DNA from: a virus
Lineage: Duplodnaviria > Heunggongvirae > Uroviricota > Caudoviricetes
Virus record (IMG/VR): IMGVR_UViG_2574180019_000006
Length of the DNA: 64,000 bases
Strand: one strand, 5' to 3'
Made by a program: the position numbers and the translations under genes. Of this stretch, positions 1 through 64,000 are shown piece by piece. The notes beneath the pieces are model-generated. The model ran no database searches and was not told the DNA's origin. It saw nothing but the letters and a program-made list of their open reading frames with translations. The number at the start of each line of letters is the position of its first letter. The stretch's first letter is position 1.

Positions 1-282
1 CAAAGATAGCCTGCTCACCGCAATCTACATCAGACATGTAAAACGTGAGTTCGACCTCGAATACCACAGCGAAGAAGAGCTTAACCTTGTTGACCCACGT
101 CCAAAAGCTGGCGTCATAAGCATAAACGCAGCGCGTAAAAAGCCCACTGACGCGCTGTAACCCTCCAGATCGTATATTGGCGTAGATAGAATCTACGCCT
201 CCTCAAAATAGCTCTCATAGCGTTCTACAGTGATCCTGTCTTATTTTTAGTCATACAGACAAGCAAAGTTGCGCCACAATAA

Positions 283-302
283 ATAGGTATATACTTACTT
301 AT
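283..302. promoter_or_regulatory. Copy of recurrent intergenic palindrome (ataggtatatacttacttat), family TAGGTAAGTA..TACTTACCTA
   Basis: Near-palindromic 20-mer; same family seen at >=12 intergenic positions in window. Confidence 0.35.
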
Positions 303-414
303 AAATTTTGTATATTAAGGCGCTCGTTTCATTCATAACATACCGTTATGCATAGTTGTTTACCTTCTCATTGCTCTTAAAATTTGTATCAAAATAACCA
401 CAAAGGAAAAACAC

Positions 415-1500
415 ATGACTTTGCCATACGGCGTCATTTCTGACTGCCACTACCACAAATGGGATGCGTTCTCCACGACGAACGCAGAGGGACTTAACTC
501 CAGACTTGAAATACAGTTGGAAGCAACGAAAGAAGCAGCCATCGCCATGAAGAAGGCCGGTTGTAAGTACATGTTGGTTGCCGGTGATACATTTCACGTC
601 CGAGGAACTGTGTCCCCTTCTGTTTTGCATTACGTAACTGAAACGTACAAGTGGATTATCAACGAGCTTGATCTGACAGTAGTAATGCTGGCCGGTAATC
701 ACGATCTTGAAACCAACGATTCAGTATATAGCGCCAACGCAGCAGCATCGCTGAGTTCTATCGGCGTGGTAATCGTATGTGGCAAACGCCCACACTCAAT
801 AAAAATTGGTGATGTGACTGTCCACCTGATTAGCTGGCGTAACAATCATGCGGAGCTTATCAGCGATCTGAAAGCATTACGTAAGAGCGTAGAAGGTGAT
901 AATCATGACGTTGTTATCCATACATCCATTAACAAAGCCATTCCAACAATGCCTGACGTCGGTATCGATGCGCAGGAGTTAAAGGATATCGGCTTTCGTC
1001 TCGTGCTTAGTGGGCATTACCACAACCACAAAGAGGTCATTCCTGGAGTTATCAGTGTCGGTGCGCTGACCCATCAAAATTGGGGAGATGTTGGATCTCT
1101 GGCTGGTTACATGATCGTAAACCCGGACGGCAGTTTCAGTCACTACGAAACCAGTGCGCCTAAATTCATTAACCTGGAAGATTATGTTGCCGATGACCAA
1201 ATTCGCGGCAACTACGTGCGTTTCCGCGCCGTAATTGAGAACGATGAAGAAGGCATTAAGTACCAGAACATCCTCAAAACAATGGGTGCAAAAGGTGTCG
1301 TGTGCAACTTCATCCGTAAGTCATCAATGATGGAAGGGACAGCAAGCACAACGGAAACCAGCAAAATCGATAGCCTGGGAGAGTCGGTATCTGCTTATTG
1401 CAAGATTGTCCACGATACTGACGGCGGATTTGATCTGAGCAAGTTGGATATTTTGTGTCAGGAAATCCTCACCGAAGCGGAGAGTTCGGAGGCTGTGTGA
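415..1500 (+). CDS. SbcD/Mre11-family calcineurin-like phosphoesterase (DSB-processing nuclease subunit)
   Basis: Metallophosphatase motifs in order: DCHYH, GDTFH, GNHD, GHYH; immediately upstream of SbcC-like ATPase; RBS aaagga before ATG. Confidence 0.7.
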   Translation: MTLPYGVISDCHYHKWDAFSTTNAEGLNSRLEIQLEATKEAAIAMKKAGCKYMLVAGDTFHVRGTVSPSVLHYVTETYKWIINELDLTVVMLAGNHDLETNDSVYSANAAASLSSIGVVIVCGKRPHSIKIGDVTVHLISWRNNHAELISDLKALRKSVEGDNHDVVIHTSINKAIPTMPDVGIDAQELKDIGFRLVLSGHYHNHKEVIPGVISVGALTHQNWGDVGSLAGYMIVNPDGSFSHYETSAPKFINLEDYVADDQIRGNYVRFRAVIENDEEGIKYQNILKTMGAKGVVCNFIRKSSMMEGTASTTETSKIDSLGESVSAYCKIVHDTDGGFDLSKLDILCQEILTEAESSEAV

Positions 1501-1729
1501 GGCAAAGTCGTTATGGGAGCTTTCGAGACTTTGCCATCACGATGAAAAGACTTGAACGAGGCCAGACGGTGATGTTTCACAAGCCCTACCCGCCACAAGG
1601 AAATCCCGTAGCGTTTTATCTTGGAAGGTTAACCAGAAAAGGCGTATTGAGGCGCAGATCCTTCCCGGCGCATACGGAGTTCAGATTGAAAGAAGGTCAA
1701 AAGCTAACACACGGTATCAAAGGTGTTAT

Positions 1730-3646
1730 ATGAAGTTTTTAAAGCTCCAGGTTGAGAATTTTATGGCTATCGCCAGCGCGGAGGTCGAGTTAGATCAGCG
1801 TGGTTTAGTGCTCATTCAGGGTGTTAATAGTGATGATAGTTCCGCATCAAGTAATGGCTCTGGAAAGTCAACGCTAATGAATAGCCTGATGTGGTGTCTT
1901 TATGGCGAAACAGCTCATGGTGTGAAGGGTGACGATGTGTTGTCTACCGACCATGAAAAGAACTGTCGTGTTGCAGTAACCATCGAGGATGAAGGCAAGA
2001 GATATGCGATCATTCGTCACCGTAAACACAAAGAGTTCAAAAATCGGCTTATCGTTCGTGGTGAAGACGGCGATATGACGAAAGGCAAAGATGCGCTGAC
2101 GCAAGAGTTCGTCGAGCGTCTGATCGGTGCATCTAAAGAGGTTTTCATGGCTTCCATCTATGCGAGCCAAGAAGCTATGCCAGATTTACCTGGAATGTCC
2201 GACAAAAACCTCAAAACCATCGTAGAAGAAGCCGCTGGCGTTGACAGACTGACACGCGCCTACGCTATTGCTCGTGAGCGAGCTAATGCAGCTGCCGCAC
2301 GTATGGATGTGGTTAAAACCAAATTGGAGTCGACAATCTCGACCATTGAGGCAACACAGTCAGAAATTGAGTCAGCGAAAGCCTCCTCTGAATCATGGGA
2401 GCAAGAGCGTTCTAAACGTTATGACGATGCCCTGGCTGGGCTGGCCAGTGCCGAAGTTGAGTTAACGGAAGTTGAACTTGAGATCCGCACTCTTCCCGAA
2501 CAGATCCGTGATACCGAGAAGGCAATCGAAAGTGAGCGCAAAAAGTTAGCCTCAAAAGAAGAACATGACGCCAAGTTGCTCAAAGTTCGTGGTGCGATAA
2601 CTGATATTCGGGCAAGCATCAAAGCTACAGAAAATAGTCAGGCTGATGCAATGAGCCGCGCGCGTAATTTTAAGACCAAAGCAGAAGAGGTTGGTACTAA
2701 AGTGGGATCACCATGCCCTACTTGTGGCAAAGCCTACTGCGAAGAAGATCTATCAACGGTGAAGGAGAATTTCATTGAACAAGCACGTCAGGAAATTGGT
2801 CAGGCGAAGACACTTGCAGAGGCAATGGCTAAACACAAAACGAATCTTGAGAAAGCGTTAAGCATTGAGTCTGCCCTTGTTAAAACGACACCTGATGTAA
2901 CGGCTATCATTGCCCGGATTGAAGAGCTTACGAAACAACTCTCATCTTTGCGTCATCGTGAGAAGGAGGTTGTTGCTATTGAGTCTCTTGTGACTCGTGC
3001 TCGTACTGAGGTCGATCGTATATCAAAAGAGATTAATCCGTTTATTGCTCTTATCGCCAGACACGAAGATAACCTGGTATCCAGTAAGTCTACCTTCAAG
3101 TCCTTAAAAGATGAGTTGAAGGCTATTCAGGAACAAACGTTGCTATTGGAAAAAGCTCGTCAGGTCTACTCTCCTGCCGGGGTGCGTTCTCATATTTTGA
3201 CGTCTGTTACGCCTTTCCTGAATACACGCACTGCCGAGTATCTCAATACGTTGTCTGACGGGAATATTACTGCTGAGTGGTCGACGATGGATGTCACTAA
3301 AAAAGGTGAGTATCGCGACAAATTCAACATTAGTGTGCAGAAGAAAGGTTCAAGTAAGTCGTTCCAGACCCTCTCTGGTGGTGAGAAGCGGAAGGTTCGC
3401 ATTGCGTGTTCTTTGGCATTGCAGGATCTGGTTAGTAACCGGGCGAGTAAAAACATCGATTTGTTTATCGGCGACGAAATTGACGATGCACTCGATACAG
3501 CCGGTCTTGAACGCCTCATGGGTATTCTGGAGTCCAAAGCTCGCGAGCGAGGTACTGTGCTGATTATCTCCCATAAAGAGATGAAGTCATGGTTCCGGGA
3601 AACTATTACGCTGGAAGTTAAAGAGGGGCGCAGCTATGTCGTTTAA
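1730..3646 (+). CDS. SbcC/Rad50-family ATPase
   Basis: N-terminal Walker A GSGKST, long central coiled-coil with CPTCGKAYC zinc-hook-like CxxC, C-terminal ABC signature LSGGEKRKV and Walker B DEIDDALD; 638 aa. Confidence 0.75.
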   Translation: MKFLKLQVENFMAIASAEVELDQRGLVLIQGVNSDDSSASSNGSGKSTLMNSLMWCLYGETAHGVKGDDVLSTDHEKNCRVAVTIEDEGKRYAIIRHRKHKEFKNRLIVRGEDGDMTKGKDALTQEFVERLIGASKEVFMASIYASQEAMPDLPGMSDKNLKTIVEEAAGVDRLTRAYAIARERANAAAARMDVVKTKLESTISTIEATQSEIESAKASSESWEQERSKRYDDALAGLASAEVELTEVELEIRTLPEQIRDTEKAIESERKKLASKEEHDAKLLKVRGAITDIRASIKATENSQADAMSRARNFKTKAEEVGTKVGSPCPTCGKAYCEEDLSTVKENFIEQARQEIGQAKTLAEAMAKHKTNLEKALSIESALVKTTPDVTAIIARIEELTKQLSSLRHREKEVVAIESLVTRARTEVDRISKEINPFIALIARHEDNLVSSKSTFKSLKDELKAIQEQTLLLEKARQVYSPAGVRSHILTSVTPFLNTRTAEYLNTLSDGNITAEWSTMDVTKKGEYRDKFNISVQKKGSSKSFQTLSGGEKRKVRIACSLALQDLVSNRASKNIDLFIGDEIDDALDTAGLERLMGILESKARERGTVLIISHKEMKSWFRETITLEVKEGRSYVV

Positions 3647-4388: not shown

Positions 4389-4958
4389 ATGAGTAAAAAA
4401 ATCAGCGTAGTTGGTGTTGATCCCTCAATGAGCAACTTTGGGCTTGCTGTGGGCACTTTAGACCTTGAGACGGACGAACTTGAGATTCACGGCCTTACTC
4501 TTGTTGAGACTAAAGCGGGGAGTAACAAAAAGACCGTTCGTGTGAACAGTGACGATCTGCGCCGAGCCAGTGAAATATGGCGTGTTGCGAAGCCAATCAT
4601 TGATAAGGCAAATATGGTTTTTTGTGAGCTACCGGTTGGGAGCCAAAACTCTCGTTCGCAGACGTCTTACGGTATTTGTATCGGTGTACTTGCGTGTGTG
4701 GATAAGCCATTGATCCAGGTTACTCCAAACGAAATCAAGCATTTTGTCGGCAATAAACTTACTACATCGAAAGAAGAGATTATCCAGTGGGCTACGAAAA
4801 AACACCCTAAAGCACCGTGGCTGCGTCGTAAGCAATCTGGACAGGATGTTCTCGTGAACAAAAACGAACATTTGGCTGATGCGGTGGCTGCCATCCATAC
4901 CGGTATGCAAACAGATCAGTTCCGCCAGGTGCGCGATGTTCTTAAGTCTCTCATTTGA
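4389..4958 (+). CDS. putative RuvC-like Holliday-junction resolvase
   Basis: N-terminus VVGVDPSMSNFGLAV resembles RuvC/A22-type resolvase motif I; strong RBS ggtaaggagac; adjacent to recombination nuclease genes. Confidence 0.4.
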   Translation: MSKKISVVGVDPSMSNFGLAVGTLDLETDELEIHGLTLVETKAGSNKKTVRVNSDDLRRASEIWRVAKPIIDKANMVFCELPVGSQNSRSQTSYGICIGVLACVDKPLIQVTPNEIKHFVGNKLTTSKEEIIQWATKKHPKAPWLRRKQSGQDVLVNKNEHLADAVAAIHTGMQTDQFRQVRDVLKSLI

Positions 4959-5031: not shown

Positions 5032-7347
5032 ATGATAAGCATCGTAAAACGTAACGGCCAAACAGAGCCGTTATCCGAAGAAAAATACAACCGCGTCGTA
5101 ATGTATGGCGTAGAAGGCATTCGTGGTGTAAGCGCATCCGCTGTAGCAATGGGAGCTGCGGCCAGCATTTTTGATGGGATGACCACCAGCCAGTTGCATG
5201 AGGCTTTGGTTAAATCTGCCGCTGATTTGATCTCACCAGAAGCACCAAATTACTCACAGGTGGCTGCCCGCCTGAACATTTTTAAAATCCGCAAAGATGC
5301 CTTCGGTCGTTACGACTATCCGAACTTCTACCAACACATTGTCAAGAACGTTAACAAGGGCGTTTATGACAAGGATTTGCTGACACATTATTCGTTTGAA
5401 GAGATCGAAGAACTCGGCAATTACATTAAGCCTAAACGTGACGATCTTTTTGGCTATGCAGCTACGGTGCAGTTGCAAAGCAAATACCTCGTTCAAAACC
5501 GTGTTACTGGTGAGATTCATGAGGGGCCGCAACATATCTATATGCTGGTAGGCATGTGTCTGTTCCAGAATTGGGAAGACGACTGCGCTGGCAAAACACG
5601 TATGGAGATGGTCAAAGGTTTCTATGACGTTACAAGTACGTTCAAACTGTCTCTGCCCACACCAATCATGGCCGGCGTCCGTACTCCTACCCGTCAGTTC
5701 TCCAGTTGTGTGCTGATTGAGTCTGGCGATAGTCTGAAAGGGATTAGTGCAGCTTCAGCCGCAATTATCGACTACGTTTCACGTCGTGCTGGAATTGGTA
5801 TTGGTTTTGGCCGTATCCGTGCGCTGGGCAGCGAGATCCGCAATGGTGAAGCCACCCATACCGGAGTTATTCCATTCCTGAAGCATTTCCAGACGGCTGT
5901 TAAATCTTGTTCGCAAGGTGGTGTTCGTGGTGGCGCAGCAACAGCGTTTTACCCGATCTGGCATCTTGAAGTTGAAAGTCTGCTGGTGGTGAAAAATAAC
6001 CGTGGTATTGATGAAAACCGCGTTCGCCATCTTGATTACGGCGTCATGAGTAACCGTCTAATGTACCGTCGACTCGTCAGAAGCGAGAACATCACTCTGT
6101 TCAGCCCGCATGATGTGCCTGATATGTACGAAGCCTTCTTCACAGACCAGGAGCTGTTTGAAAAGCTGTACCATAAATACGAAGCCGATGATTCAATTCG
6201 CAAGAAGTCAGTACCTGCCATTGAGCTGTTCTCATCTCTGATGCAGGAACGAGCGTCCACGGGCCGAATTTATATTGCGAACGTCGATCATATTAATGAG
6301 CATGGCGCTTTCATTCCTGCTCTTGCACCTGTCCGCCAGTCAAACCTGTGTATGGAGATCACCCTACCCACCCGTCCACTGGCATTTACCGACGACCCGA
6401 ACGGTGAGATCGCGCTATGCACTTTATCCGCTTTTAACCTCGGAGCCATCCGTTCACTGGAGTCTCTTAAAGAGGTGGCGTTCTATGCCGTTGCTGCACT
6501 GGATTCGTTACTGGATTATCAAGACTATCCGATGGAGGCAGCCGAAGTGCCTGCCAAAGCTCGTCGTAGCTTGGGAATTGGTGTAACCAACTTTGCTTAT
6601 TACCTGGCAAAGAATGGCGTTCGTTATTCTGATACCGCTGGCAATAAACTGGTGCATGAAACGTTCGAAGCTATCCAGTATTACCTTCTTGATGCCAGCT
6701 GCCGACTTGCTGAAGCAAAAGGTGAGTGTGACTGGTTTGAGCAGACCAAATACGCAATTGGTCAGTTGCCGATCGACCATTACCGTTCTTCATTAGACGA
6801 AAGTGGCGAAACCAACTTTGAGTTAAAGATGCCGTGGGAAGAACTGCGTGAACGTATTGCAAAATACGGCCTTCGCAACTCCACACTGACGGCACAAATG
6901 CCATGCGAGACTTCCAGCCAGATCACTAATTCCACCAACGGCATCGAACCGCCTCGTGGCCCGGTGTCGGTGAAATCTTCTAAGGACGGCATCGTTAAGA
7001 TGGTCGTGCCTGAGTTTGAAAAACTGAAGGAACAGTATGAATACCTGTGGGATATGCCGGACAACCGCGGCTATCTGACAAAGGTGGCGATCATCCAGAA
7101 GTTCTTTGACCAGGCTATTTCAGCCAATACCAACTATGACCCTTCTCGCTTTGAAGGCGATAAAGTCCCAATGATGACGCTACTGTCAGATTTGCTTCTC
7201 GCCTACAAGATGGGAGTTAAAACGCTTTACTACCACAACACCAGAGATGGTGCAGGAAAGCGTGATGACGACGAACCGCAGAATCCACTGGCGCAAGCTG
7301 TAGCCGTCGAGCCAGAAGATGAGTGCGACGGAGCCTGCAAAATCTGA
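5032..7347 (+). CDS. nrdA: Ribonucleotide reductase class Ia large subunit
   Basis: 771 aa; N-terminal ATP-cone-like VKRNGQTEPLSEEKY; C-terminal tail ...EDECDGACKI matches NrdA redox-active C-terminus; followed by nrdB. Confidence 0.9.
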   Translation: MISIVKRNGQTEPLSEEKYNRVVMYGVEGIRGVSASAVAMGAAASIFDGMTTSQLHEALVKSAADLISPEAPNYSQVAARLNIFKIRKDAFGRYDYPNFYQHIVKNVNKGVYDKDLLTHYSFEEIEELGNYIKPKRDDLFGYAATVQLQSKYLVQNRVTGEIHEGPQHIYMLVGMCLFQNWEDDCAGKTRMEMVKGFYDVTSTFKLSLPTPIMAGVRTPTRQFSSCVLIESGDSLKGISAASAAIIDYVSRRAGIGIGFGRIRALGSEIRNGEATHTGVIPFLKHFQTAVKSCSQGGVRGGAATAFYPIWHLEVESLLVVKNNRGIDENRVRHLDYGVMSNRLMYRRLVRSENITLFSPHDVPDMYEAFFTDQELFEKLYHKYEADDSIRKKSVPAIELFSSLMQERASTGRIYIANVDHINEHGAFIPALAPVRQSNLCMEITLPTRPLAFTDDPNGEIALCTLSAFNLGAIRSLESLKEVAFYAVAALDSLLDYQDYPMEAAEVPAKARRSLGIGVTNFAYYLAKNGVRYSDTAGNKLVHETFEAIQYYLLDASCRLAEAKGECDWFEQTKYAIGQLPIDHYRSSLDESGETNFELKMPWEELRERIAKYGLRNSTLTAQMPCETSSQITNSTNGIEPPRGPVSVKSSKDGIVKMVVPEFEKLKEQYEYLWDMPDNRGYLTKVAIIQKFFDQAISANTNYDPSRFEGDKVPMMTLLSDLLLAYKMGVKTLYYHNTRDGAGKRDDDEPQNPLAQAVAVEPEDECDGACKI

Positions 7348-7366
7348 CATATGGTGGGGGATATCC

Positions 7367-8705
7367 CATAAGCGCTAACTTAAGGGTTGTGGTATTACGC
7401 CTGATATGATTTAACGTGCCGATGAATTACTCTCACGATAACTGGTCAGCAATTCTGGCCCATATTGGTAAGCCCGAAGAACTGGATACTTCGGCACGTA
7501 ATGCCGGGGCTCTAACCCGCCGCCGCGAAATTCGTGATGCTGCAACTCTGCTACGTCTGGGGCTGGCTTACGGCCCCGGGGGGATGTCATTACGTGAAGT
7601 CACTGCATGGGCTCAGCTCCATGACGTTGCAACATTATCTGACGTGGCTCTCCTGAAGCGGCTGCGGAATGCCGCCGACTGGTTTGGCATACTTGCCGCA
7701 CAAACACTTGCTGTACGCGCCGCAGTTACGGGTTGTACAAGCGGAAAGAGATTGCGTCTTGTCGATGGAACAGCAATCAGTGCGCCCGGGGGCGGCAGCG
7801 CTGAATGGCGACTACATATGGGATATGATCCTCATACCTGTCAGTTCACTGATTTTGAGCTAACCGACAGCAGAGACGCTGAACGGCTGGACCGATTTGC
7901 GCAAACGGCAGACGAGATACGCATTGCTGACCGGGGATTCGGTTCGCGTCCCGAATGTATCCGCTCACTTGCTTTTGGAGAAGCTGATTATATCGTCCGG
8001 GTTCACTGGCGAGGATTGCGCTGGTTAACTGCAGAAGGAATGCGCTTTGACATGATGGGTTTTCTGCGCGGGCTGGATTGCGGTAAGAACGGTGAAACCA
8101 CTGTAATGATAGGCAATTCAGGTAATAAAAAAGCCGGAGCTCCCTTTCCGGCACGTCTCATTGCCGTATCACTTCCTCCCGAAAAAGCATTAATCAGTAA
8201 AACCCGACTGCTCAGCGAGAATCGTCGAAAAGGACGAGTAGTTCAGGCGGAAACGCTGGAAGCAGCGGGCCATGTGCTATTGCTAACATCATTACCGGAA
8301 GATGAATATTCAGCAGAGCAAGTGGCTGATTGTTACCGTCTGCGATGGCAAATTGAACTGGCTTTTAAGCGGCTCAAAAGTTTGCTGCACCTGGATGCTT
8401 TGCGTGCAAAGGAACCTGAACTCGCGAAAGCGTGGATATTTGCTAATCTACTCGCCGCATTTTTAATTGACGACATAATCCAGCCATCGCTGGATTTCCC
8501 CCCCAGAAGTGCCGGATCCGAAAAGAAGAACTAACTCGTTGTGGAGAATAACAAAAATGGTCATCTGGAGCTTACAGGTGGCCATTCGTGGGACAGTATC
8601 CCTGACAGCCTACAAAACGCAATTGAAGAACGCGAGGCATCGTCTTAACGAGGCACCGAGGCGTCGCATTCTTCAGATGGTTCAACCCTTAAGTTAGCGC
8701 TTATG
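7367..8705. mobile_element. IS186 (IS4 family) insertion sequence, ~1339 bp
   Basis: Terminal inverted repeats cataagcgctaacttaagggttg (7367-7389) and caacccttaagttagcgcttatg (8683-8705); flanked by 10-bp direct repeat ggggatatcc (7357-7366 and 8706-8715); encodes 372-aa transposase recognised as IS186. Confidence 0.85.
7416..8534 (+). CDS. insL: IS186 transposase
   Basis: 372-aa ORF filling the IS; N-terminus MNYSHDNWSAILAHIGKPEELDTSARNAGALTRRREIRD recalled as IS186 transposase. Confidence 0.85.
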   Translation: MPMNYSHDNWSAILAHIGKPEELDTSARNAGALTRRREIRDAATLLRLGLAYGPGGMSLREVTAWAQLHDVATLSDVALLKRLRNAADWFGILAAQTLAVRAAVTGCTSGKRLRLVDGTAISAPGGGSAEWRLHMGYDPHTCQFTDFELTDSRDAERLDRFAQTADEIRIADRGFGSRPECIRSLAFGEADYIVRVHWRGLRWLTAEGMRFDMMGFLRGLDCGKNGETTVMIGNSGNKKAGAPFPARLIAVSLPPEKALISKTRLLSENRRKGRVVQAETLEAAGHVLLLTSLPEDEYSAEQVADCYRLRWQIELAFKRLKSLLHLDALRAKEPELAKAWIFANLLAAFLIDDIIQPSLDFPPRSAGSEKKN

Positions 8706-8754
8706 GGGGATATCCCCACCTTCTCTTTGATTTGTAAGCCTTGTTTAAACACAT

Positions 8755-53035: not shown

Positions 53036-53069
53036 TCAGTGTTGTAGATAAGTAATTATCTATGTTTAA

Positions 53070-53097
53070 GGGTGGGCTATACGCCCACCCTTTTTGT
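53070..53097 (+). terminator. Rho-independent terminator after capsid gene
   Basis: gggtgggctatacgcccaccc hairpin followed by tttttgt. Confidence 0.6.
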
Positions 53098-53108
53098 AGG
53101 AGCAAGAA

Positions 53109-55341: not shown

Positions 55342-55420
55342 CGCCAGTCGCATTATTTACTTTTGGTCGAAAGGGTTTTTGGCCAGTAATGAGAGCGACC
55401 GACAACAACAGGGAGAGAGC

Positions 55421-55765
55421 ATGAATATTTCATGGCAAACAGAAATTGCGATCTACCGCTTTGGCGCAAAGAACGTTTACGGCGAGGCGCAATTACAATT
55501 CGTCAGGAAGACGAATGTCGGCGTGGTTAAGTTCGAACAGAGTAATGAGAAATCGTCAGTTCGTGCTGATAGCTCTGGTAGTCGTGGTAAGGCGAGTCTG
55601 GAGCTGTTTGATGCTGTGTTAGTTGTCCCTTTAGAAGCGGCTGTACAACTTGATGATGTGCTGATCCTTGAAGGTCAAAAATTAAAGGTGTCCAGTGTTC
55701 ATCGCCGCTGGGGGCTACGAGGAAGACCTGGGCATCTTGAAGTGGGGGCGAATATATGGGTCTGA
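55421..55765 (+). CDS. hypothetical head-tail joining protein (~114 aa)
   Basis: ATG 55421 preceded by gggagagagc; ORF track starts at TTG 55325. Confidence 0.4.
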   Translation: MNISWQTEIAIYRFGAKNVYGEAQLQFVRKTNVGVVKFEQSNEKSSVRADSSGSRGKASLELFDAVLVVPLEAAVQLDDVLILEGQKLKVSSVHRRWGLRGRPGHLEVGANIWV

Positions 55766-56229
55766 AATACGATGCGCATCAGTTCAAACGTGCGGGGAAT
55801 AGACTCAATAACAGCCAGAAAGCATTTAAGCGATATCTTATTCGGGACATGGAAAAGCTGGCGCGTTTGGTTGAGCGTCTCAGCCGTGCAATGGCCCCGC
55901 TGGAAACCGGATCTCTGGAGACAGCCATCTTTGCCAGGGTGATTAAAGAAGGTTATTCAGGGCTGCGCATTGAGCTTTCTGTGTCTGGAGCAAAACCACG
56001 TCAGGGGCATCCGGGCGTAGAAGTCGGTGACTATGCTAAGTACATGGAGCTGGGTAAATACCGACTCGGTTATCTTTCTCGAATGAAGAACGTGACAAAC
56101 CCACCAATTGCCGGTGTTAAACCTCGTGTTGGGCCACACTTTCTGGAAAGAGCGGTGGAAATTAGCGAGAAGCAGTTCTCAGAAGCGATTCTTGAGGCTG
56201 CAAGAAAAGCCGGTTTTACGAGAGGTTAA
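55756..56229 (+). CDS. hypothetical tail-completion-region protein (157 aa)
   Basis: Overlaps upstream stop; synteny. Confidence 0.4.
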   Translation: MGLKYDAHQFKRAGNRLNNSQKAFKRYLIRDMEKLARLVERLSRAMAPLETGSLETAIFARVIKEGYSGLRIELSVSGAKPRQGHPGVEVGDYAKYMELGKYRLGYLSRMKNVTNPPIAGVKPRVGPHFLERAVEISEKQFSEAILEAARKAGFTRG

Positions 56230-56230
56230 T

Positions 56231-56614
56231 GTGTTTATCGAAGCGTTTGCAAGTTTGATGCAGAAGGCAAAGATTGGCACGGTCGGGACTGACATTTTCT
56301 GTCACTACTTGCCTGCCAATGTGAAATCTGGCGTCCTGCTTATTAACCCAAATACCGGTATCAGCATCGATCATGAGCTACAGGGCTTTTATCACGAATC
56401 ATTCACAATCATTGTGCGTGGTTCGTCAATTACTACGACGGTTGAGAAAGCCAATAAAATCATTGAGATGTTTCCAGTAGAGGAAACGGAATCTGGTGGT
56501 GTTTATTTTCGACTTGTACGACCGATGGCGATGCCAATCATTTATCCCAAAAATGATGGGGCATTAATAGAAGCAGGCATTCCTGTTGAATTTGCTGGCT
56601 ATTTATTGAATTAA
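56231..56614 (+). CDS. hypothetical tail-terminator-region protein (~128 aa, GTG start)
   Basis: GTG 56231 preceded by gagagg; ORF track extension 56108 overlaps previous gene. Confidence 0.35.
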   Translation: MFIEAFASLMQKAKIGTVGTDIFCHYLPANVKSGVLLINPNTGISIDHELQGFYHESFTIIVRGSSITTTVEKANKIIEMFPVEETESGGVYFRLVRPMAMPIIYPKNDGALIEAGIPVEFAGYLLN

Positions 56615-56621
56615 CTCAATT

Positions 56622-56639
56622 GGTAAGTATATACTTACT
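56622..56639. promoter_or_regulatory. Palindrome ggtaagtatatacttact upstream of major tail gene
   Basis: Core identical to 35977-35992. Confidence 0.4.
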
Positions 56640-56688
56640 ATTAGCGCAATGAATGCGTAGAATTAACGGAAAAAGGAGTTTTCCATCA

Positions 56689-57435
56689 ATGTCTAATACC
56701 CATGTAAAAAACATCAAACTTGGTGCCTGTAAGGTGTCGTTTGGTGGTGTGGATTTGGGTTACACCAAAGGTGGTGTTCAGGTTGAAATCGCAACCGAAA
56801 CGCTGAAAGTGACCGTAGACCAGCTGGGCCAGACCACGATCTCCGAGCTGATCCAGGGCCGCAACATCACCATTACTGCGCCGCTGGCTGAATCCGTGTT
56901 GAAAAACATGGTCGATCTGATGCCAGGTTCCACGCTGAGTTCTGGCGAAGATACCGTAACCATCACGTCTGCGCAGGGAGTGAACCTGATCGACGTTGCG
57001 AAAGAGTTGGTGCTGACCCCGCAGGATGCGACGGATTATATTCTGACCATCCCTAAAGCAGCAACCGCGGGTAACTTCACCATGACCTACCAGTCTGACG
57101 ACGTTCGCGTGTTCTCAGTTGAGTTTTCCGCTTACCCGGACGACGCTGGCGTGTTGGGGAAAATGAGCCTCCCAAAGCCGGTTGAGAGCGTCACGCTGAC
57201 CCCGTCTTCACCGACCGTAAAAGTGGGCACTAAAGTTCAATTGAGCGCAACCTTCACCCCGGCCGATGCAACCAATAAGACTGGCGTGTGGAGCTCTGAT
57301 GCGACTGATAAAGCGACCGTAGATCAGAACGGACTGGTAACTGGTAAAGCTGTCGGTTCAGCCAATATCACCTTCACAACTAATGACGGTGCCAAGAAGG
57401 CGACCAAAGCCGTCTCTGTAACTGCCGCAAGCTAA
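56689..57435 (+). CDS. Major tail protein with C-terminal Ig-like (Big_2) domain (lambda gpV-like architecture)
   Basis: ATG 56689 with RBS aaaaggag; C-terminal VTLTPSSPTVKVGTKVQLSATFTPADATNKTGVWSSDATDKATVDQNGLVTGKAVGSANITF Ig-like repeat; precedes chaperone and tape measure. Confidence 0.7.
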   Translation: MSNTHVKNIKLGACKVSFGGVDLGYTKGGVQVEIATETLKVTVDQLGQTTISELIQGRNITITAPLAESVLKNMVDLMPGSTLSSGEDTVTITSAQGVNLIDVAKELVLTPQDATDYILTIPKAATAGNFTMTYQSDDVRVFSVEFSAYPDDAGVLGKMSLPKPVESVTLTPSSPTVKVGTKVQLSATFTPADATNKTGVWSSDATDKATVDQNGLVTGKAVGSANITFTTNDGAKKATKAVSVTAAS

Positions 57436-57496
57436 ATTGTGATAACCCAAGAGGCCCATGGATGGGCCTCTGTATGAGTTTAAAAGGATTTAAACC

Positions 57497-57814
57497 ATGA
57501 CCAAATTACTCGATCTCGACTCCATTCTGCCGCCGAAAAAAAGCATCAAATTTGGTGGCAAAGAATATCCCATCGTTGAAATGACCGTCGGCCTCTTTGT
57601 TTCCATCAAGCAGATGGAAGGCAAAGATCTCATGAACATGTCTCCTGTTGAGCAAGTGACAGCTTATGCAGATCTGGTTCGTAAGGTTATCCCTTCAGTA
57701 CCTGACGAAGTTCTTGAAAAACTGACTGTTCCGCAACTCCAGCAGATCTTCACCTTCGCTATGGAAGTGATTGATGAAGAAAACGAAAAAGCGGCTGGCG
57801 AAGGGGCAAAGTAA
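57497..57814 (+). CDS. Tail assembly chaperone (gpG-like)
   Basis: 105 aa, acidic C-terminus, between major tail and tape measure genes. Confidence 0.55.
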   Translation: MTKLLDLDSILPPKKSIKFGGKEYPIVEMTVGLFVSIKQMEGKDLMNMSPVEQVTAYADLVRKVIPSVPDEVLEKLTVPQLQQIFTFAMEVIDEENEKAAGEGAK

Positions 57815-58164
57815 TTTCCCGCGATGAATCCGGGACAAGGACCGTCTCAATAGATCTCGGATTCTATTTCAGTCGTGTAGTTGCTCACTACGCCGTGTCG
57901 CCATTAGAGCTACTGAACGTTCCTCTCACGATGTTCTGGATGCTCAGTCGCAATATAGACCGTCTGCGTGCGGAAGAGGATGTCCGCAACTTACAAGTCG
58001 CTCGTGCGTCCCAGGCGGATGGCGAGGCTGTGAAGGCGTTCATGGAGGGTTTGCAACTCAGGATTGGAAGACCAGTCGTAACAGATAAAGTCTACGATCC
58101 AAGCCAGGATAAGGCAGACCCTGACGCCAAAGAGCAACTGATGCAAATATTTGGCAGAGGATGA
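57778..58164 (+). CDS. -1 frame extension for putative gpGT-like frameshift product
   Basis: Frame -1 relative to chaperone is open from 57778 to 58164; overlap window contains GAAAAAG (57785-57791); ends 8 nt before tape-measure ATG. Confidence 0.4.
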   Translation, partial: RKRKSGWRRGKVISRDESGTRTVSIDLGFYFSRVVAHYAVSPLELLNVPLTMFWMLSRNIDRLRAEEDVRNLQVARASQADGEAVKAFMEGLQLRIGRPVVTDKVYDPSQDKADPDAKEQLMQIFGRG

Positions 58165-58171
58165 CAAGGGA

Positions 58172-61100
58172 ATGTCACAAAACGTAGAGTTTATCCTGTC
58201 GCTGGAAGACAAACAGTTTACAGCGTCAATCGATCGTGCGGGGAAACTGCTTACTCGATTTGGTGAGCAGGTAACAAAGCCTGCTCAAAAAATCCAAACC
58301 TTTGAACGCTCTTTGGGTTCGGTCGCCCGTATCATTGGCGTTCTGGAAAGCAAGCTCGATTCTACGGCAGATAAACTACAGGATGTAGCTGCCGGTTTTG
58401 AGCTTGCTTCAGATGCTACGCGTAAAATGCGTGGCAACATCACCAGCCTCAATTCTGGTCTTAAAGCCCTGATTGAGCGCGTCGATACGACAACTTCTTC
58501 AGTAGATAAACTCACCGCGTCATTACGTAAAGTGCAATCAGAGCTAAATGATTTCTCTGATTGGGCGACCTATGCAAGCAAAAGCGCAAGCCGCTTTGGT
58601 ACGGAGGTCAAAGAAGCCTCTGCGTCCGTGAGTGGCATGAATACGCGCCTTAATACCACGACGAAGCGACTCAGTAATTGGGGTGTCACAACGAGTCAGG
58701 CTGCCGAGGGACTGAAAAAGGTTCGTGAGCAGATGGACGAAGTTATCGGACGTCAGCAACTGATTAGCAAGCCGGTACGCGTTCGTACATCTGGAAGTGG
58801 CGATGGTGGTAGCGGGCGGCGTAGCGGCGCTTCTGGCCATAGCGGTAAAAGTAACGAAGGAGGTATGTTCTCTGGCCTTCGTGGCAACATTTTCCTGCTT
58901 GGCGAGATCGGAGATGCAGCCAGAACGGTTACTGACATCATGTTTGGGTGGCAGAAGCCTATTGTTGAAGCTGCGGCCGAAATGGAACGTATGCGGGTGA
59001 TGCTTCGAGGGTTGAATAAGGAGAAGTCCAACCCTGGCCAGGCTGCCGCCGATGACATGAAGTACATCGTAGACATGGCTCAAAATGCGCCGTTCGCGAT
59101 GCAGGCGTTAACAGATTCCTTCGTGAAGTTTCGTTCTGCTGGCTTAGATCCAACCGATGGTTCTCTGAAGGCGCTGGTGGACTCCGTTGCTCGTTTTGGT
59201 GGTGATAGTGAGCTGTTGAAACGTGCGGCTGTGGCCGTTCAGCAGATGTCCGGTAAGGGCGTTGTGTCAATGGAAGAGCTACGTCAGCAATTAGGTGAAG
59301 CCGTTCCTAACGCGATGCAGGCAATGGCAGACGCCGCAGGCATCACTATGGGGGAACTGACTAAAGCCGTTGCCAGCGGTACGGTTGAGGCAAAACAGGC
59401 GTTGTCTCTGATGTTTGTTGGTCTGCGTGCGGAGAATGAGAACGCAGCGAAAGACATGATGCAAACCTACACAGGTGCGCTGGCGCAACTTCAGACGTCA
59501 TTCACGTTATTTGCTGATCGGGTTGGTCAGGCCGGATATCTGGATTCTCTATCGAAGGGGATGAAAGAACTGGCTTCAATCATGAATAGCGCCGAAGGGA
59601 TTTCGTTTGCCAATTCTTTAGGTTCGGGGTTAACAACGGCAATCGATGGGTTGCGTCAGCTTGCTCAATGGTTAGCAAAGAACCAAGAGCTGGTAATTAA
59701 TCTCGGTAAGATCGTGGCCGCGATGGTTGCGTTCAAACTGATGCGAGCAGGGATCATGGGGGTAGTTGGCGCTGGGAGCCAGATGGTTAGCACCTTTGCC
59801 ACGATGGCGACCGCCATACAGACTCCATTTAACCTCGGCGCTACAGCAGTAACTCGATTCAATCGTGCGGCACGTATGGGGCTGGCTCCGATCCCCTCTC
59901 TTATTTTCGCCATCCGTGGGGCGATTACGGGGCTTAAAGGCGCTTTTGCTGGATTAACGGCGTTCATTGCAGCAAACCCTATAGGGGCAGCATTTACAGT
60001 TGCCACAGTAGCTGTTGCTGGCCTAATCACGTACATGACCATGCTCCGCAGCGAAACTTCAAAGGTCGTTGACGAGATTAGGAAAATACCAGAGGCGATG
60101 ACGGCGGCCAAACGTGCACAGATGGCGGAGTATAAAGCGCGTCTTGAGCAACAAATCACGCAAAAGGAACAAGAGTTAAAATCTGGCGAAAAGGTGGTTT
60201 ATGGGCCGGGTATGGCCGGAACTACAGTAAAGATTAATCAGGATGAACGTAAGCGTATAGAAAATGAGCTAAATGACCTTCGTAAGAAACGCGATAAAAC
60301 TACTGGGGCAATTGAACGCGGAGACATTGCCGTAGCCAAACGTCTTGCAAAAGATGCGGCAGAATCACAGATAGAGAAAATACGGGAAGAGAATAGAGAC
60401 TTTGCGGCAACATTCGCTAAAGCTCGTCAAGAGGCTCTGGAGAAGATCCAAAAAATCAATGATGACGATTCACTTTCTGATGACGAAAAGAACAAGCTAT
60501 TGGCACCGTTACGTGAAACGGTAAACAAAAGCTATCTGGAGCCTGCGCAAAAACTGGTTGATTCACTTTCTTCTCGTAAGAATGCGACCGAGAAGCAAAT
60601 TGCGACTCTTAATGATCAGCTTGAAAAAGCCAAAAAGGATGGAAATACCGAGCAGATCCAGAAACTGCAAGGCAGTATTCGTGGTTATCAGGAGCATTTG
60701 GAAGCCGTTGCTCAGGAGCTGACTCAGGCAGAGTTCGAGAGAGATAACGCGGCCAAAACTGGTAAGGGCGTAATGTCAAACCAGGGGACTGTTCTTGGGT
60801 TAGGTACAACTGATAAAGCTGCTCAGAAGGCGTTGGCGCAATATATGCGAAACCAGATGGATTCTGCGACTTATCAGCGTACTTTGCCTGACGGCACTCC
60901 GATGATGGACTTCGAAGGTAAGCCGATTATTGGGCCTAAACAACTCAAGACGCAGCTTAATTTGCAGAAAGCATCCAGTGCCAGCTCTCTGGAGAAAATG
61001 AGCGATGAAGAGCGTGCCGCAGCCATTGCTGCACTGACTAAAGCTCGTGAACAGGATGCAGCAGCTGCCGAGAAAGCAGCCCAACGATCAGCTAACGCCT

Positions 61101-62749
61101 CGCAGCGTGCGGCCAAGAAGGAACAGGCAGCGCAACAGAAACTGGCAGCCGGATACCAGAAGGCTCTGGACAAAGCCGATCAGCTTATGGGGCAAATGGG
61201 TGAAAGCTCTAAGGCTACGGTATCGTTTGATCAGTCTCTTCGTGATACAACGAAATCGCTGACAGATTTGGCTAATGCGGTTCCTAACGAGTTCATCACT
61301 CAAGAGATGATCGACAAGGCGAAAAAACGTCTTGAAGACCTCAAAAATGCGACACCTGAATATCGCGAGATGTTTAATCGCCGCAATGTTGAGCAGATGA
61401 TCTCCACTTGGGCACCGGAGGCGGATTCCATTATTAGTGCTGGCTATACGCCGTCTCGCGAAGAGAAAGTTGCTGATTTCGAAGACACCTACAACCGCAA
61501 TCTCAAAGCGTTGATAGAACTTCGTGATAAGGCGTCTGATCCTAAAGTTGTGGCGCTTTATACAAAGAAAATCAATCAACTGATTGCTGCTGGCAATACC
61601 GCGCTTATTAAAGAGACGGGGACTGCGACGCAGAAGTTGGCACTGGAATACGAAAACCTGGCAGAGCAGATCGAAAGCACCTGGACTGATTTGTTTAGTG
61701 GCTTAACTGATGTCCTGACTGATTTCGTTATTAACGGGAAGATGAGCTTCTCCAGCCTATCTCAGTCCATTTTGAAAGATATCACCAATATGGTCGTGAA
61801 GTCGCAGATCACGCTGCCTCTAATGAACATGTTGGGGATGGGAACCACCGCAGCTGGTAGTTCACAGAGTGGTAATTTGCTGACCGGGGTTGCTTCCGCC
61901 GTTGCCAATCAAGGGGTACGAATGGGCAACACTGTTAACGGCGACAAGTCGGTAGGAGAAGCCACGAAGGAGACGTCCAGTTCGGTAACTGGATTGGGGC
62001 AAACAACACAGCAGACCACCAGCGCAATTGGCACAGCAACAAATGCGATTGGTAGCTGGGTATCGGGGCTATTTGATAGCACCGAAGCCAAAGATGCTGA
62101 GACAAAAGCCGTGAAGGACTCCATCTTCTCGATGCAGAACCTCAGCTCTGTTACCGGCGCGCTGTCTGCCGCGTTTGCAATGCTTGGAGCTAATGCTTCC
62201 GGCTCTGGTAATAAGTGGTTGAGTTTTGGAGCAACGGTTGCATCTGGTCTTGTTTCAGCTTGGGCTGGCGGTGGATTCGATGGATTGATGTCCGGTTCTT
62301 CTGGCTCAACTTCCGGGTTCAACAATCTGACCAGTTCTGCTGCCGATGGCACGAATGGTATTCCTGCAATTCCGAAGTTTGCAAATGGTGGCATATTCGG
62401 AAAAGACGGCGTGATCCCGCTCCGGGCATACCAGAAAGGCGGTATTGCTAACTCGCCTCAATTAGCGTTGTTTGGGGAAGGTTCTATGAATGAGGCGTAT
62501 GTTCCATTGCCTGATGGCCGAACAATCCCTGTAACGCTCAGTACCGATGGTATGAGTGGAGGCGGAAATGTTCTTTCTCCTGTATCAATTGAGATCAACG
62601 TCCATAGTGACGGTAGCACGACAGAATCCGGCGATACAGAAAGCATATGGAACAATGCCGCTCAACGGATGAAAGCAATCGCGCTTGAGACTATCGCTCA
62701 AGAGAAACGCCCTGGCGGATCACTCAACCCAAACACTCAACGTAACTAA
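58172..62749 (+). CDS. Tail tape measure protein
   Basis: ~1525 aa from ATG 58172 (ORF track TTG 58151); long alpha-helical Ala/Gln/Lys-rich sequence with central hydrophobic segment and Gly-rich C-terminal region. Confidence 0.85.
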   Translation: MSQNVEFILSLEDKQFTASIDRAGKLLTRFGEQVTKPAQKIQTFERSLGSVARIIGVLESKLDSTADKLQDVAAGFELASDATRKMRGNITSLNSGLKALIERVDTTTSSVDKLTASLRKVQSELNDFSDWATYASKSASRFGTEVKEASASVSGMNTRLNTTTKRLSNWGVTTSQAAEGLKKVREQMDEVIGRQQLISKPVRVRTSGSGDGGSGRRSGASGHSGKSNEGGMFSGLRGNIFLLGEIGDAARTVTDIMFGWQKPIVEAAAEMERMRVMLRGLNKEKSNPGQAAADDMKYIVDMAQNAPFAMQALTDSFVKFRSAGLDPTDGSLKALVDSVARFGGDSELLKRAAVAVQQMSGKGVVSMEELRQQLGEAVPNAMQAMADAAGITMGELTKAVASGTVEAKQALSLMFVGLRAENENAAKDMMQTYTGALAQLQTSFTLFADRVGQAGYLDSLSKGMKELASIMNSAEGISFANSLGSGLTTAIDGLRQLAQWLAKNQELVINLGKIVAAMVAFKLMRAGIMGVVGAGSQMVSTFATMATAIQTPFNLGATAVTRFNRAARMGLAPIPSLIFAIRGAITGLKGAFAGLTAFIAANPIGAAFTVATVAVAGLITYMTMLRSETSKVVDEIRKIPEAMTAAKRAQMAEYKARLEQQITQKEQELKSGEKVVYGPGMAGTTVKINQDERKRIENELNDLRKKRDKTTGAIERGDIAVAKRLAKDAAESQIEKIREENRDFAATFAKARQEALEKIQKINDDDSLSDDEKNKLLAPLRETVNKSYLEPAQKLVDSLSSRKNATEKQIATLNDQLEKAKKDGNTEQIQKLQGSIRGYQEHLEAVAQELTQAEFERDNAAKTGKGVMSNQGTVLGLGTTDKAAQKALAQYMRNQMDSATYQRTLPDGTPMMDFEGKPIIGPKQLKTQLNLQKASSASSLEKMSDEERAAAIAALTKAREQDAAAAEKAAQRSANASQRAAKKEQAAQQKLAAGYQKALDKADQLMGQMGESSKATVSFDQSLRDTTKSLTDLANAVPNEFITQEMIDKAKKRLEDLKNATPEYREMFNRRNVEQMISTWAPEADSIISAGYTPSREEKVADFEDTYNRNLKALIELRDKASDPKVVALYTKKINQLIAAGNTALIKETGTATQKLALEYENLAEQIESTWTDLFSGLTDVLTDFVINGKMSFSSLSQSILKDITNMVVKSQITLPLMNMLGMGTTAAGSSQSGNLLTGVASAVANQGVRMGNTVNGDKSVGEATKETSSSVTGLGQTTQQTTSAIGTATNAIGSWVSGLFDSTEAKDAETKAVKDSIFSMQNLSSVTGALSAAFAMLGANASGSGNKWLSFGATVASGLVSAWAGGGFDGLMSGSSGSTSGFNNLTSSAADGTNGIPAIPKFANGGIFGKDGVIPLRAYQKGGIANSPQLALFGEGSMNEAYVPLPDGRTIPVTLSTDGMSGGGNVLSPVSIEINVHSDGSTTESGDTESIWNNAAQRMKAIALETIAQEKRPGGSLNPNTQRN

Positions 62750-62791
62750 CTATCGACTGCCCCGACCGGGGCGGTCTCACAAGGATGTGAG

Positions 62792-63127
62792 ATGGAAAGA
62801 CAAACGTTTAATTGGTATCCAGATTACGAATCTGAAAAGAGCGTAAAACCGAATGTAACGGTACTTAATTTTGGTGATGACTACGAGCAGCGACAGGCTC
62901 AAGGTCTTAATCGTATTAAAGAAGAATGGTCGTTAACCTTTACCAGATCATACAACGAAATTAATGCAATCGATGACTTCCTGACTGAGCGAGCAGGCGT
63001 TGAGTCGTTCTATTGGGTTAATCCAAGAGGAAAACGGATTGTAGTTGTATGTGACAGTCATACGGTCAAGCGATATCAGGGGTACTGTGTCTTAACTGCT
63101 ACATTCAGACAAGTATTTGAGGCTTAA
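62792..63127 (+). CDS. Minor tail protein, lambda gpM-like
   Basis: 111 aa; FNWYPDYE...LNFGDDYEQRQAQGLN...SLTF...ESFYW...RYQGY resembles lambda gpM as recalled; directly after tape measure. Confidence 0.7.
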   Translation: MERQTFNWYPDYESEKSVKPNVTVLNFGDDYEQRQAQGLNRIKEEWSLTFTRSYNEINAIDDFLTERAGVESFYWVNPRGKRIVVVCDSHTVKRYQGYCVLTATFRQVFEA

Positions 63128-63133
63128 GCATCT

Positions 63134-63159
63134 GGATAAGTAAGTACTAATTTACTATC
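63134..63159. promoter_or_regulatory. Palindrome-family element ggataagtaagtactaatttact
   Basis: Recurrent palindromic element family. Confidence 0.3.
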
Positions 63160-63209
63160 ATTGTGGCGTTGACAGGATGTTAGCGCCTACTTATTTCAAG
63201 GATGAAACA

Positions 63210-63908
63210 ATGGGAATTAAAGCTGATATTCAGAGCTTATCTCCCTCTGCACTCATTGAGTTGTTCGTACTGGATATGTCGAACACAACTTCAGGGGGGA
63301 AGCTATTCTTCCACGCCGGAACAAACGAACTGATGCAACCGGTCGTCTGGCAAGGAGTGACATACGAGCCGTGGCCAATCAAAGCATCAGGCTTTGACAA
63401 AACTGGCCAGGGAACGTTGCCACGTCCAAAAATTCAGGTATCGAACTTTGCCGGAACCGTCTCTGCGGAAGTTCAGGCGAACGACGATCTTGTTGGCTGC
63501 CGCATTATTCGCAAGATGACGCTGGCTCGCTTCCTCGATGCCGTTAATTTTAAAGACGGTAATCCAACAGCAGATCCAAACCAACATTTCCCGGATGAAA
63601 TGTGGTTTATCGAACAGAAAACGCTCGAAACTCATCAGGTTGTCGAGTTTGAGTTGTCCAGTGTGTTCGATTTGATGGGGGTGCAACTGCCGTATCGTCA
63701 GATCATTAAAAACACCTGCCCGTGGAAATACCGAGGGCCAGAATGCGGCTATACCGGTCCATATTTCGACAAAAATAACCAGCAGACGTCTATGTCTGGT
63801 GCTGATTACTGCACAAAACGTTATGACGCCTGTAATGCGCGTCGGAATTATTTTGCCAACGGAGTGATCCATTTTGGCGGGTTTATTGGAGCTACGCGAT
63901 ATGGGTAA
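63210..63908 (+). CDS. Minor tail protein, lambda gpL-like
   Basis: WQGVTYEPWPIKASGFDKTGQGTLPRPKIQVSNF, ARFLDAVNFKDGNPTADPNQ, NTCPWKYRGPECGYTGP, NGVIHFGGFIGA colinear with lambda gpL as recalled; ATG 63210 with RBS aagga. Confidence 0.8.
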   Translation: MGIKADIQSLSPSALIELFVLDMSNTTSGGKLFFHAGTNELMQPVVWQGVTYEPWPIKASGFDKTGQGTLPRPKIQVSNFAGTVSAEVQANDDLVGCRIIRKMTLARFLDAVNFKDGNPTADPNQHFPDEMWFIEQKTLETHQVVEFELSSVFDLMGVQLPYRQIIKNTCPWKYRGPECGYTGPYFDKNNQQTSMSGADYCTKRYDACNARRNYFANGVIHFGGFIGATRYG

Positions 63909-63939
63909 TAAAGCAATCCCTGAGCTTGGCTCTGATGTT

Positions 63940-64000
63940 ATGCAGCAAATCTATCTCTGCGCCATAAATCGCTACCCTAATGAAGCGTGTGGCTTTCTGG
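63940..64000 (+). CDS. Partial (5' end only) tail tip protein, lambda gpK-like; alternative start 63901
   Basis: Translation MQQIYLCAINRYPNEACGFL matches the N-terminal JAB/MPN-like start of gpK-family proteins; truncated by window end. Confidence 0.45.
   Translation, partial: MQQIYLCAINRYPNEACGFL

Follow-up and report, generated by a model that had tools for sequence, protein, structure and literature searches.

Does a siphovirus sequence that brings its own nucleotide-metabolism genes come from a T5-type virulent phage, or from a temperate element that lives in its host as a plasmid? We asked this of 64,000 nucleotides (nt; 'the window') of the IMG/VR virus record IMGVR_UViG_2574180019_000006. 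A reading made earlier from the sequence alone (the sequence-only reading) had favoured an SSU5/pHCM2-like phage-plasmid over a T5-type phage, and it was supported by collinearity with these two elements, by 86–97% identity of the structural proteins and by near-identical circular plasmids. With a probability of about 0.93, these 64 kb belong to a pSLy3-type member of the SSU5 supergroup: a temperate Escherichia siphovirus that persists in the prophage state as a low-copy circular plasmid of ~110 kb and not as an integrated element. This type of element has been described before; databases already contain near-identical sequences, and much is known about the family.

The closest relative was the circular E. 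coli plasmid pPRO_A-1374-6M-A_2 (111,954 bp; pPRO_A below), which showed 23 differences from the window over 62.6 kb (99.96% identity), an IS186 insertion aside, and was 100% identical to it from 44 to 64 kb. Plasmid pSLy3 (NZ_CP015915) had 98.4% identity at 99% coverage over 44–64 kb, pECOH89 (NC_023916) had 98.9% identity over 1–24 kb, and phage Cyrano, which is plasmid pLF82 (OV696614), had 96.8–98.3% nt identity to the window. The structural third (44–64 kb) matched 797 plasmid records, of which over 180 were non-mobilizable plasmids of ~110 kb from E. coli with 95–99% identity. Among the 12 phage records that it also matched were those of Escherichia phages CMS-2020a, PhiR41_1 and Cyrano and, at 81%, that of Salmonella phage SSU5. 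Nucleotide matches to the other two thirds of the window followed the same pattern. Close relatives were circular, non-mobilizable records of 103–127 kb, and all records covering most of the window were plasmids or phage genomes. At least 80% of positions 1–24,000 was present in 181 of 5,426 complete E. coli genomes; chromosomal matches in this set (7,758 places, median 3 per genome) are most simply explained as IS186 copies.

Judged from these nucleotide comparisons, the element is a member of the pSLy3 group, the sister of the SSU5_pHCM2 group, and not of SSU5_pHCM2 proper. Its 98.4% identity to pSLy3 compares with ~81% to SSU5 and 81–82% at about two-thirds coverage to Klebsiella types, an assignment made by nucleotide identity and coverage and not by tyPPing profile thresholds. 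Mean nt identity to SSU5 and pHCM2 was only ~78%, the replication protein of the relatives is 50% identical to pHCM2 RepA, and their replicon is typed as rep_cluster_488, not IncFIB. The name 'phage-like plasmid' was applied to pECOH89 in 2014, when its kinship with pHCM2 and SSU5 was noted (PMC3999498). Pfeifer et al. introduced the SSU5 supergroup, with the pSLy3 group as part of it, in 2021 (PMC7969092), and the groups of the supergroup now have dedicated typing profiles (PMC12977533). Since the element type has been described since 2012–2014 and was systematised in 2021, the present copy carries little weight as a discovery. The practical value lies in its correct annotation as a pSLy3-type SSU5-supergroup phage-plasmid with trimethoprim-resistance-associated dfrA51; neither 'lytic T5-like phage' nor 'untyped plasmid' would be a correct label.

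Salmonella phage SSU5 (JQ965645) and S. Typhi plasmid pHCM2 (NC_003385) were assembled from their records and compared locally with the window. The window was collinear with both: 49.1 of the 64 kb (77%) aligned to each in a single series, and the other 23% was unaligned. All 26 proteins tested had a homologue in both elements (78–98% amino acid (aa) identity). Identities to SSU5 and pHCM2 were 96.9% and 96.7% for the large terminase subunit (TerL), 92.9% and 92.7% for the portal, 94.5% and 94.5% for the major capsid protein (MCP), and 86.6% and 85.5% for the tape measure protein (TMP); the scaffold was 90.3% identical to that of SSU5. The structural proteins thus stood at 86–97% identity to SSU5/pHCM2, and clustering with a strictly lytic genus was not seen. 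A siphovirus packaging, head and tail set was present, comprising TerL, portal, scaffold, MCP, tail completion protein, major tail protein, TMP and gpM-like and gpL-like proteins; both the lambda-like tail module and the 291-aa capsid protein with its separate scaffold, which had been read as unlike T5, were recovered. The gene repertoire was shared and collinear with that of SSU5, and it included the thymidylate synthase, dihydrofolate reductase (DHFR), ribonucleotide reductase and RNase H that the sequence-only reading ascribes to pHCM2/SSU5-type elements. When TerL was searched against all phage records by tblastn, 12 SSU5-type records matched at 95% or more, and the next best match, a Ralstonia phage, reached 39%.

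The plasmid functions of the family were located in pPRO_A, outside the region that corresponds to the window, where the sequence-only reading had suggested looking for repA and parA. A 404-aa Rep_3-family initiator, at the same syntenic position as pHCM2 RepA and 50% identical to it, ends ~0.7 kb to the left of window position 1. On the 3′ side of its gene lie 11 iterons with the consensus ACCGCTGACAGCATA (pPRO_A segment coordinates 14331–14869), which are probably oriV, ~1.9–2.4 kb to the left of window position 1. A 222-aa ParA-like ATPase and a 117-aa partner are encoded outside the window region in pPRO_A and also in SSU5 and pHCM2; partition cassettes of type Ib have this layout, in which both ParA and its partner are small. 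Elsewhere, pPRO_A encodes a TacA/GNAT toxin pair (TacAT), a tyrosine recombinase with an adjacent helix-turn-helix regulator, DnaE, a DnaB-like helicase, a ligase and RecA-like proteins, as well as three tRNAs and the rest of the proteins for tail, fibres and lysis, and a primase is annotated at the corresponding position in pLAU-OXA1. By analogy with these near-identical relatives, the element would have its iteron origin and its Rep_3-family initiator gene immediately beyond the left edge of the window and replicate from there, be partitioned by the small ParA cassette, be stabilised by the TacAT toxin–antitoxin and be resolved by the tyrosine recombinase.

ParB-like proteins had been noted within the window, and two ParB_N proteins are indeed encoded there, but they are probably not partition proteins, the ParA cassette lying outside the window. 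Because their genes, which SSU5 shares, stand directly upstream of the packaging genes and beside that of an ABC-type ATPase, we did not count them as evidence of partition; they are conserved phage genes adjoining the terminase. The cluster (44120–47264) matched phrog_723, 930, 293 and 886 and follows the order of SSU5 genes 125–129 at 87–98% aa identity, with its ATPase and 299-aa protein showing the highest identity to SSU5 in the window (98%), above the capsid protein. PADLOC analysis of ten proteins from the variable region and this cluster returned generic helicase, ATPase and ParB-domain similarity only, and no defence system.

The window also carries a likely link to the host DNA-damage response. 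A search for LexA boxes gave 6 matches at no more than three mismatches against 1.0 expected by chance. Because a near-perfect box, TACTGTATGTGTATACAGTA, precedes humD, the element appears tied to the host SOS response, and humD is probably under SOS control. For Cyrano/pLF82, 5.5 copies per cell, DNase-protected genomes 32-fold above the plasmid background and 39-fold induction by ciprofloxacin have been reported (PMC9928086). That study used quantitative PCR and transmission electron microscopy, and the siphovirus particle that it assigned to Cyrano had a head of 76 nm and a tail of 259 nm (PMC9928086). By extension from Cyrano, DNA damage would induce siphovirus particles with a ~76-nm head and a 260-nm tail from the present element.

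The sole feature specific to this copy is the insertion of IS186 into the nrdA–nrdB spacer. As the sequence-only reading had proposed, the insertion is IS186: it is 100% identical over 1,344 nt to IS186A of K-12, has terminal inverted repeats (ends CATAAGCGCTAACTTAAGGGTTG and its complement) and is flanked by a 10-bp target duplication, GGGGATATCC, at 7357–7366 and 8706–8715. The target, G5-ATAT-C4, belongs to the 10–12-bp G-run/C-run class that is duplicated by IS186 (IS4 family), and the transposase is of the DDE type. The near-identical pPRO_A carries the empty site GGGGGATATCCCC, and no IS186 was found at this spacer in the plasmid, phage or complete-E. coli collections, where all alignments split. 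Because nrdB retains its own upstream copy of a palindromic motif (described below) at 8759, 3′ of IS186, the insertion may not silence the gene; its polarity on nrdB may be regarded as uncertain.

Several observations weigh against a functional phage-plasmid. No replication initiator, iteron, ParA or toxin–antitoxin was found in the window (domain searches; iteron search, 0 matches), so the plasmid state of this replicon rests on its relatives. Mitomycin C did not lead to packaging of one pSLy3-type element of E. coli, that of strain 166F4 (PMC9600943; PMC12977533), and IS186 within the nrdAB operon could lower lytic fitness. The mitomycin C result and the interrupted nrdA–nrdB operon would suit a defective phage-like plasmid, descended from an SSU5-type phage-plasmid and still maintained, that has lost its lytic cycle in this copy; a 1-bp indel at 36791, which alters the end of one small open reading frame (ORF) relative to the closest relative, points the same way. 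However, none of the ORFs for packaging, head and tail in the window is truncated; their lengths equal those in Cyrano and in SSU5, an isolated phage, both of which form virions, and 44–64 kb is 100% identical to the closest plasmid. In addition, nrdB keeps its motif downstream of IS186, and the host has its own nrdAB. We consider the loss of the lytic cycle in this copy unlikely, although it deserves to be kept in mind.

The two other explanations are far less probable. A strictly virulent T5-like phage (Demerecviridae) would account for the size of the siphovirus genome and for its nrdAB, thyA, DHFR and RNase H genes, and 91% of the length of TerL can be aligned with terminases of T5-like phages (Epseptimavirus and Tequintavirus types). 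That alignment shows 24–25% identity, though, against 97% to SSU5; nucleotide searches of the window returned no T5-like record; the 291-aa MCP is accompanied by a separate 295-aa scaffold gene; the window has no tRNA genes and a humD that is predicted to be LexA-controlled; and hundreds of near-identical circular plasmids occur in bacterial assemblies. Nucleotide searches, the distribution of TerL and the protein comparison with SSU5 refute a T5-like identity, to which we attach practically no credence. An SSU5-like prophage integrated in a chromosome, or a chimeric assembly, is very improbable as well: the relatives do encode a tyrosine recombinase and the window alone gives no topology, but every record with most of the window is a plasmid or a phage genome, and SSU5-type elements were reported as exclusively extrachromosomal in thousands of complete genomes (PMC9600943).

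The captured host genes of the sequence-only reading were identified as apbC/mrp and metG, in the divergent order of K-12. The block (28064–31355) copies the K-12 mrp–metG arrangement almost exactly from stop codon to stop codon, at 88.9% nt identity. It is absent from SSU5 and pHCM2 and present in 188 plasmids at 95–99% identity, mostly from E. coli with a few from E. albertii, E. fergusonii and Shigella; Cyrano carries it as CYRAN_99/100, and expression of CYRAN_99 has been seen in the lysogen (PMC9928086). From this distribution and from its divergence from E. coli (5% for metG, 17% for mrp), the block is judged to have been acquired long ago and to be common to the lineage; it was not taken up recently from the present host. 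The proposal that the IS and the host genes imply long residence in Escherichia holds: only IS186 speaks for recent residence, whereas the host genes are an ancestral trait of the lineage.

The two genes differ in their distance from the chromosome. Plasmid metG is 94.7% identical to that of K-12, about the distance from E. coli to a sister Escherichia species. Plasmid mrp is 82.7% identical, a larger distance than separates E. coli from Citrobacter or Salmonella, and lies outside all sampled genera. Among the best 80 of at least 590 loci, which did not include chromosomes of E. albertii, E. fergusonii or E. marmotae, no donor of the block could be named. One chromosome labelled Enterobacter hormaechei strain B56 (CP170191.1) gave mrp–metG values identical to K-12 and is probably mislabelled. 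In four plasmid copies, the ratio of non-synonymous to synonymous substitution rates (dN/dS) of metG was 0.011–0.030, and mrp had 22–35 synonymous versus 0–2 non-synonymous differences. The differences are overwhelmingly synonymous, and both genes therefore evolve under strong purifying selection on the plasmid, with a dN/dS no higher than 0.03. The metG alleles of the plasmids diverge from one another by up to 5.6%, as much as they do from K-12, and their polymorphic sites are mosaic, with long K-12-like tracts in some alleles. We infer an old capture from an enterobacterium other than E. coli, after which metG would have recombined with alleles on host chromosomes. Our literature search found nothing linking metG with SSU5, and the purifying selection and mosaic history of these genes may offer a small lead for follow-up.

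The DHFR of the window scored above the cutoff of the DfrA51 model (Table 1) and is 90.5% identical in aa sequence to the SSU5 protein that defines dfrA51; resistance is predicted from this match. dfrA51 was defined from SSU5 in 2025, and its expression in E. coli from plasmid vectors raises the minimum inhibitory concentrations of trimethoprim (PMC12217456). The gene belongs to the backbone of the element and is not transposon cargo.

Two possible regulatory features were noticed, one of them in the variable part of the window. The FljA-family gene lies in a low-GC block (37–39% GC at 38–42 kb), and its product was found in 831 plasmid records across the supergroup, mostly at 60–80% identity, with 42 records at 95% or more. 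It is 78% identical to the protein of pECOH89 despite the 98.9% identity of the backbone, and ~35% identical to an annotated phase-1 flagellin repressor. One guess is that it acts as an immunity-type regulator; no mention of fljA was found in the phage-plasmid literature searched. An oriented palindrome, AGA-AAACAAC(W)TGTTT, occurred at 12 unique sites in the window against 0.4 expected, all intergenic and in one orientation on the coding strand. Where a downstream gene was identified (nrdB, a TerB-like gene, small ORFs and the terS-like gene), the motif lay 11–45 nt upstream of the start codon. The genomes of pPRO_A, SSU5 and pHCM2 have 14–16 copies each, against fewer than 0.4 in shuffled sequences, including copies upstream of parA-like and dnaB-like genes in pPRO_A and of terS, parA and a CobT-like gene in SSU5. 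The palindrome, of which our literature search found no description, is a candidate family-specific promoter, operator or 5′ untranslated region (5′-UTR) element.

A larger picture combines two proposals: that the palindrome marks an SSU5-family-wide regulon, maybe read by the FljA-family protein as a transcriptional or 5′-UTR translational switch, and that the plasmid genes form a selected second methionyl-tRNA synthetase and ApbC pair in the E. coli lineage, with metG still exchanging with host metG. Taken jointly, we regard these as doubtful. The palindrome and the hypervariable FljA-family regulator are modest leads for work on phage-plasmid regulation, not findings.

In the region that holds five of the motif copies, positions 33300–34100 form ~800 nt of C/A-rich, G-poor and ORF-poor sequence, followed by a terminator-like hairpin at 34152–34185. 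The only cluster of indels relative to the closest plasmid lies just after this stretch (12 bp at 34114 and 3 bp at 34208). A structured RNA in the adjacent G-rich stretch (34190–34480) was considered and rejected, its folding z-score of +1.78 being no better than shuffles.

The window as a whole is densely coding, almost entirely on the + strand, with 37–52% GC. It spans four parts: DNA metabolism and recombination, from SbcCD to RNase H; a variable accessory and regulatory region with humD, the mrp–metG block, small ORFs and the FljA-family gene; the conserved ParB_N/ABC-ATPase cluster; and packaging, head and tail genes up to gpL, with gpK/I/J homologues just past the window in relatives. 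Domain searches confirmed the nrdAB, thyA, DHFR, rnhA and SbcCD-like genes of the sequence-only reading and gave further matches to a MazG/PRA-PH-type pyrophosphohydrolase, a DnaQ-like 3′–5′ exonuclease, a TerB-like protein and an HD phosphohydrolase. Two methyltransferases had been called Dam-type; both are present, but only the first is so in the strict Pfam sense, the second being a DUF4942 protein. ARAGORN found no tRNA genes in the window (the tRNA-Asn/Thr/Ser genes of relatives lie outside this region), and an Rfam scan of the whole window gave no family at gathering score.

Table 1 Features of the window. Packaging and head genes (47736–54029) were called from Pfam and PHROG matches.
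Feature	Position	Strand	Evidence or remark
SbcD-like	415–1500	+	Pfam Metallophos; 87% aa identity to SSU5
SbcC-like nuclease/ATPase partner	1730–3646	+	AAA_23, SMC_N, SbcC_Walker_B; 82% aa identity to SSU5
RuvC-like Holliday junction resolvase	4389–4958	+	phrog_159 E=3e-57; PGAP 'RuvC family protein' in relative
NrdA, class Ia ribonucleotide reductase alpha	5032–7347	+	Ribonuc_red_lgC E=3e-131 and ATP-cone
IS186 (transposase ORF 7416–8534)	7367–8705	+	nrdA–nrdB spacer; IS4-family DDE transposase HMM
NrdB, ribonucleotide reductase beta	8803–9945	+	Ribonuc_red_sm E=4.5e-46
ThyA	11064–12167	+	Pfam Thymidylat_synt
HAD-like phosphatase	within 11064–13055	+	
DHFR (DfrA51)	12579–13055	+	Pfam DHFR_1; NCBIfam trim_DfrA51 (NF047324), 338.2 bits vs cutoff 322
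Dam-family N6-adenine DNA methyltransferase	15898–16491	+	PF05869 E=2.9e-38; NPPY at residue 76
RNase HI	17488–18078	+	RNase_H E=1e-44
DUF4942 protein, 561 aa, second putative N6-adenine methyltransferase	20444–22129	+	phrog_6263 'DNA methyltransferase' E=4e-299; NPPY at residue 489
LexA box	27601–27620	+	one mismatch to SOS-box consensus; overlaps promoter-like site
HumD/UmuD′-like S24 peptidase	27637–28026	+	NCBIfam HumD E=2e-66; LexA box 17 nt upstream
apbC/mrp	28064–29164	-	NCBIfam ApbC, 759 bits
metG	29322–31355	+	NCBIfam MetG, 1019 bits
Palindromic motif sites	8759, 18976, 19705, 31440, 31491, 33531, 34112, 34713, 35090, 35574, 47658, 47683		
ORF-poor, regulatory-looking region	33300–35600	+	holds 5 of 12 motif copies
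FljA-family protein, 174 aa	39813–40337	-	PF03614 'repressor of phase-1 flagellin' E=3e-80, full length; phrog_1444 'transcriptional repressor'
DEAD/DEAH (UvsW-like) helicase	42496–44055	-	Pfam ResIII, DEAD, Helicase_C; 92% aa identity to SSU5
ParB_N proteins	44120–44818, 44818–45486	+	Pfam ParB_N; 87–90% to SSU5
ABC-type ATPase	45483–46121	+	Pfam ABC_tran; 98% to SSU5
84-aa ORF, then 299-aa protein	46365–47264 (299-aa protein)	+	299-aa protein 98% to SSU5
terS-like DNA-binding protein	47736–48368	+	
TerL, 418 aa	48368–49624	+	
Portal, 524 aa	49651–51225	+	
Scaffold, 295 aa	51247–52134	+	phrog_206, DUF6651
MCP, 291 aa	52160–53035	+	phrog_212
Ig-like decoration protein	53109–54029	+	
Connector and lambda-like tail module	54074–63908	+	PHROG matches
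Tail completion protein	55756–56229	+	
Ig-domain major tail protein	56689–57435	+	
Chaperone-position ORFs	57497–57814, 57940–58164	+	
TMP, 1525 aa	58172–62749	+	length equal to Cyrano TMP
gpM-like	62792–63127	+	phrog_14
gpL	63177–63908	+	TIGR01600 phage_tail_L E=1e-119

Among known systems, T5 resembles the window as a siphovirus with a genome of ~110–120 kb, its own nrdAB, thyA, DHFR and RNase H, and a remotely related terminase. T5 is virulent, however, and its capsid protein carries a fused scaffolding domain, whereas the scaffold of the window is separate. SSU5 and pHCM2 share the nucleotide-metabolism set, the head and tail genes and the palindromic motif (15–16 copies per genome), but lack the mrp–metG block and come from another host genus, Salmonella. 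Yersinia pestis pMT1 and the Klebsiella pKpn-type phage-plasmids share the structural module at 80–90% nt identity and an FljA-family gene; they are more distant, with about two thirds of the structural region covered and with group-specific plasmid genes (PMC7969092). The plasmids of the pSLy3 group (pSLy3, pECOH89, pLF82/Cyrano, pPRO_A-1374-6M-A_2 and pLAU-OXA1) match at 96–99.96% nt identity across the whole window and share its gene order, mrp–metG block, DfrA51, ParB_N/ABC cluster and structural genes. They differ in having no IS186 at 7367–8705 and in the alleles of the low-GC block at 38–42 kb, and some of them carry ISEcp1-blaCTX-M-15 outside the window region.

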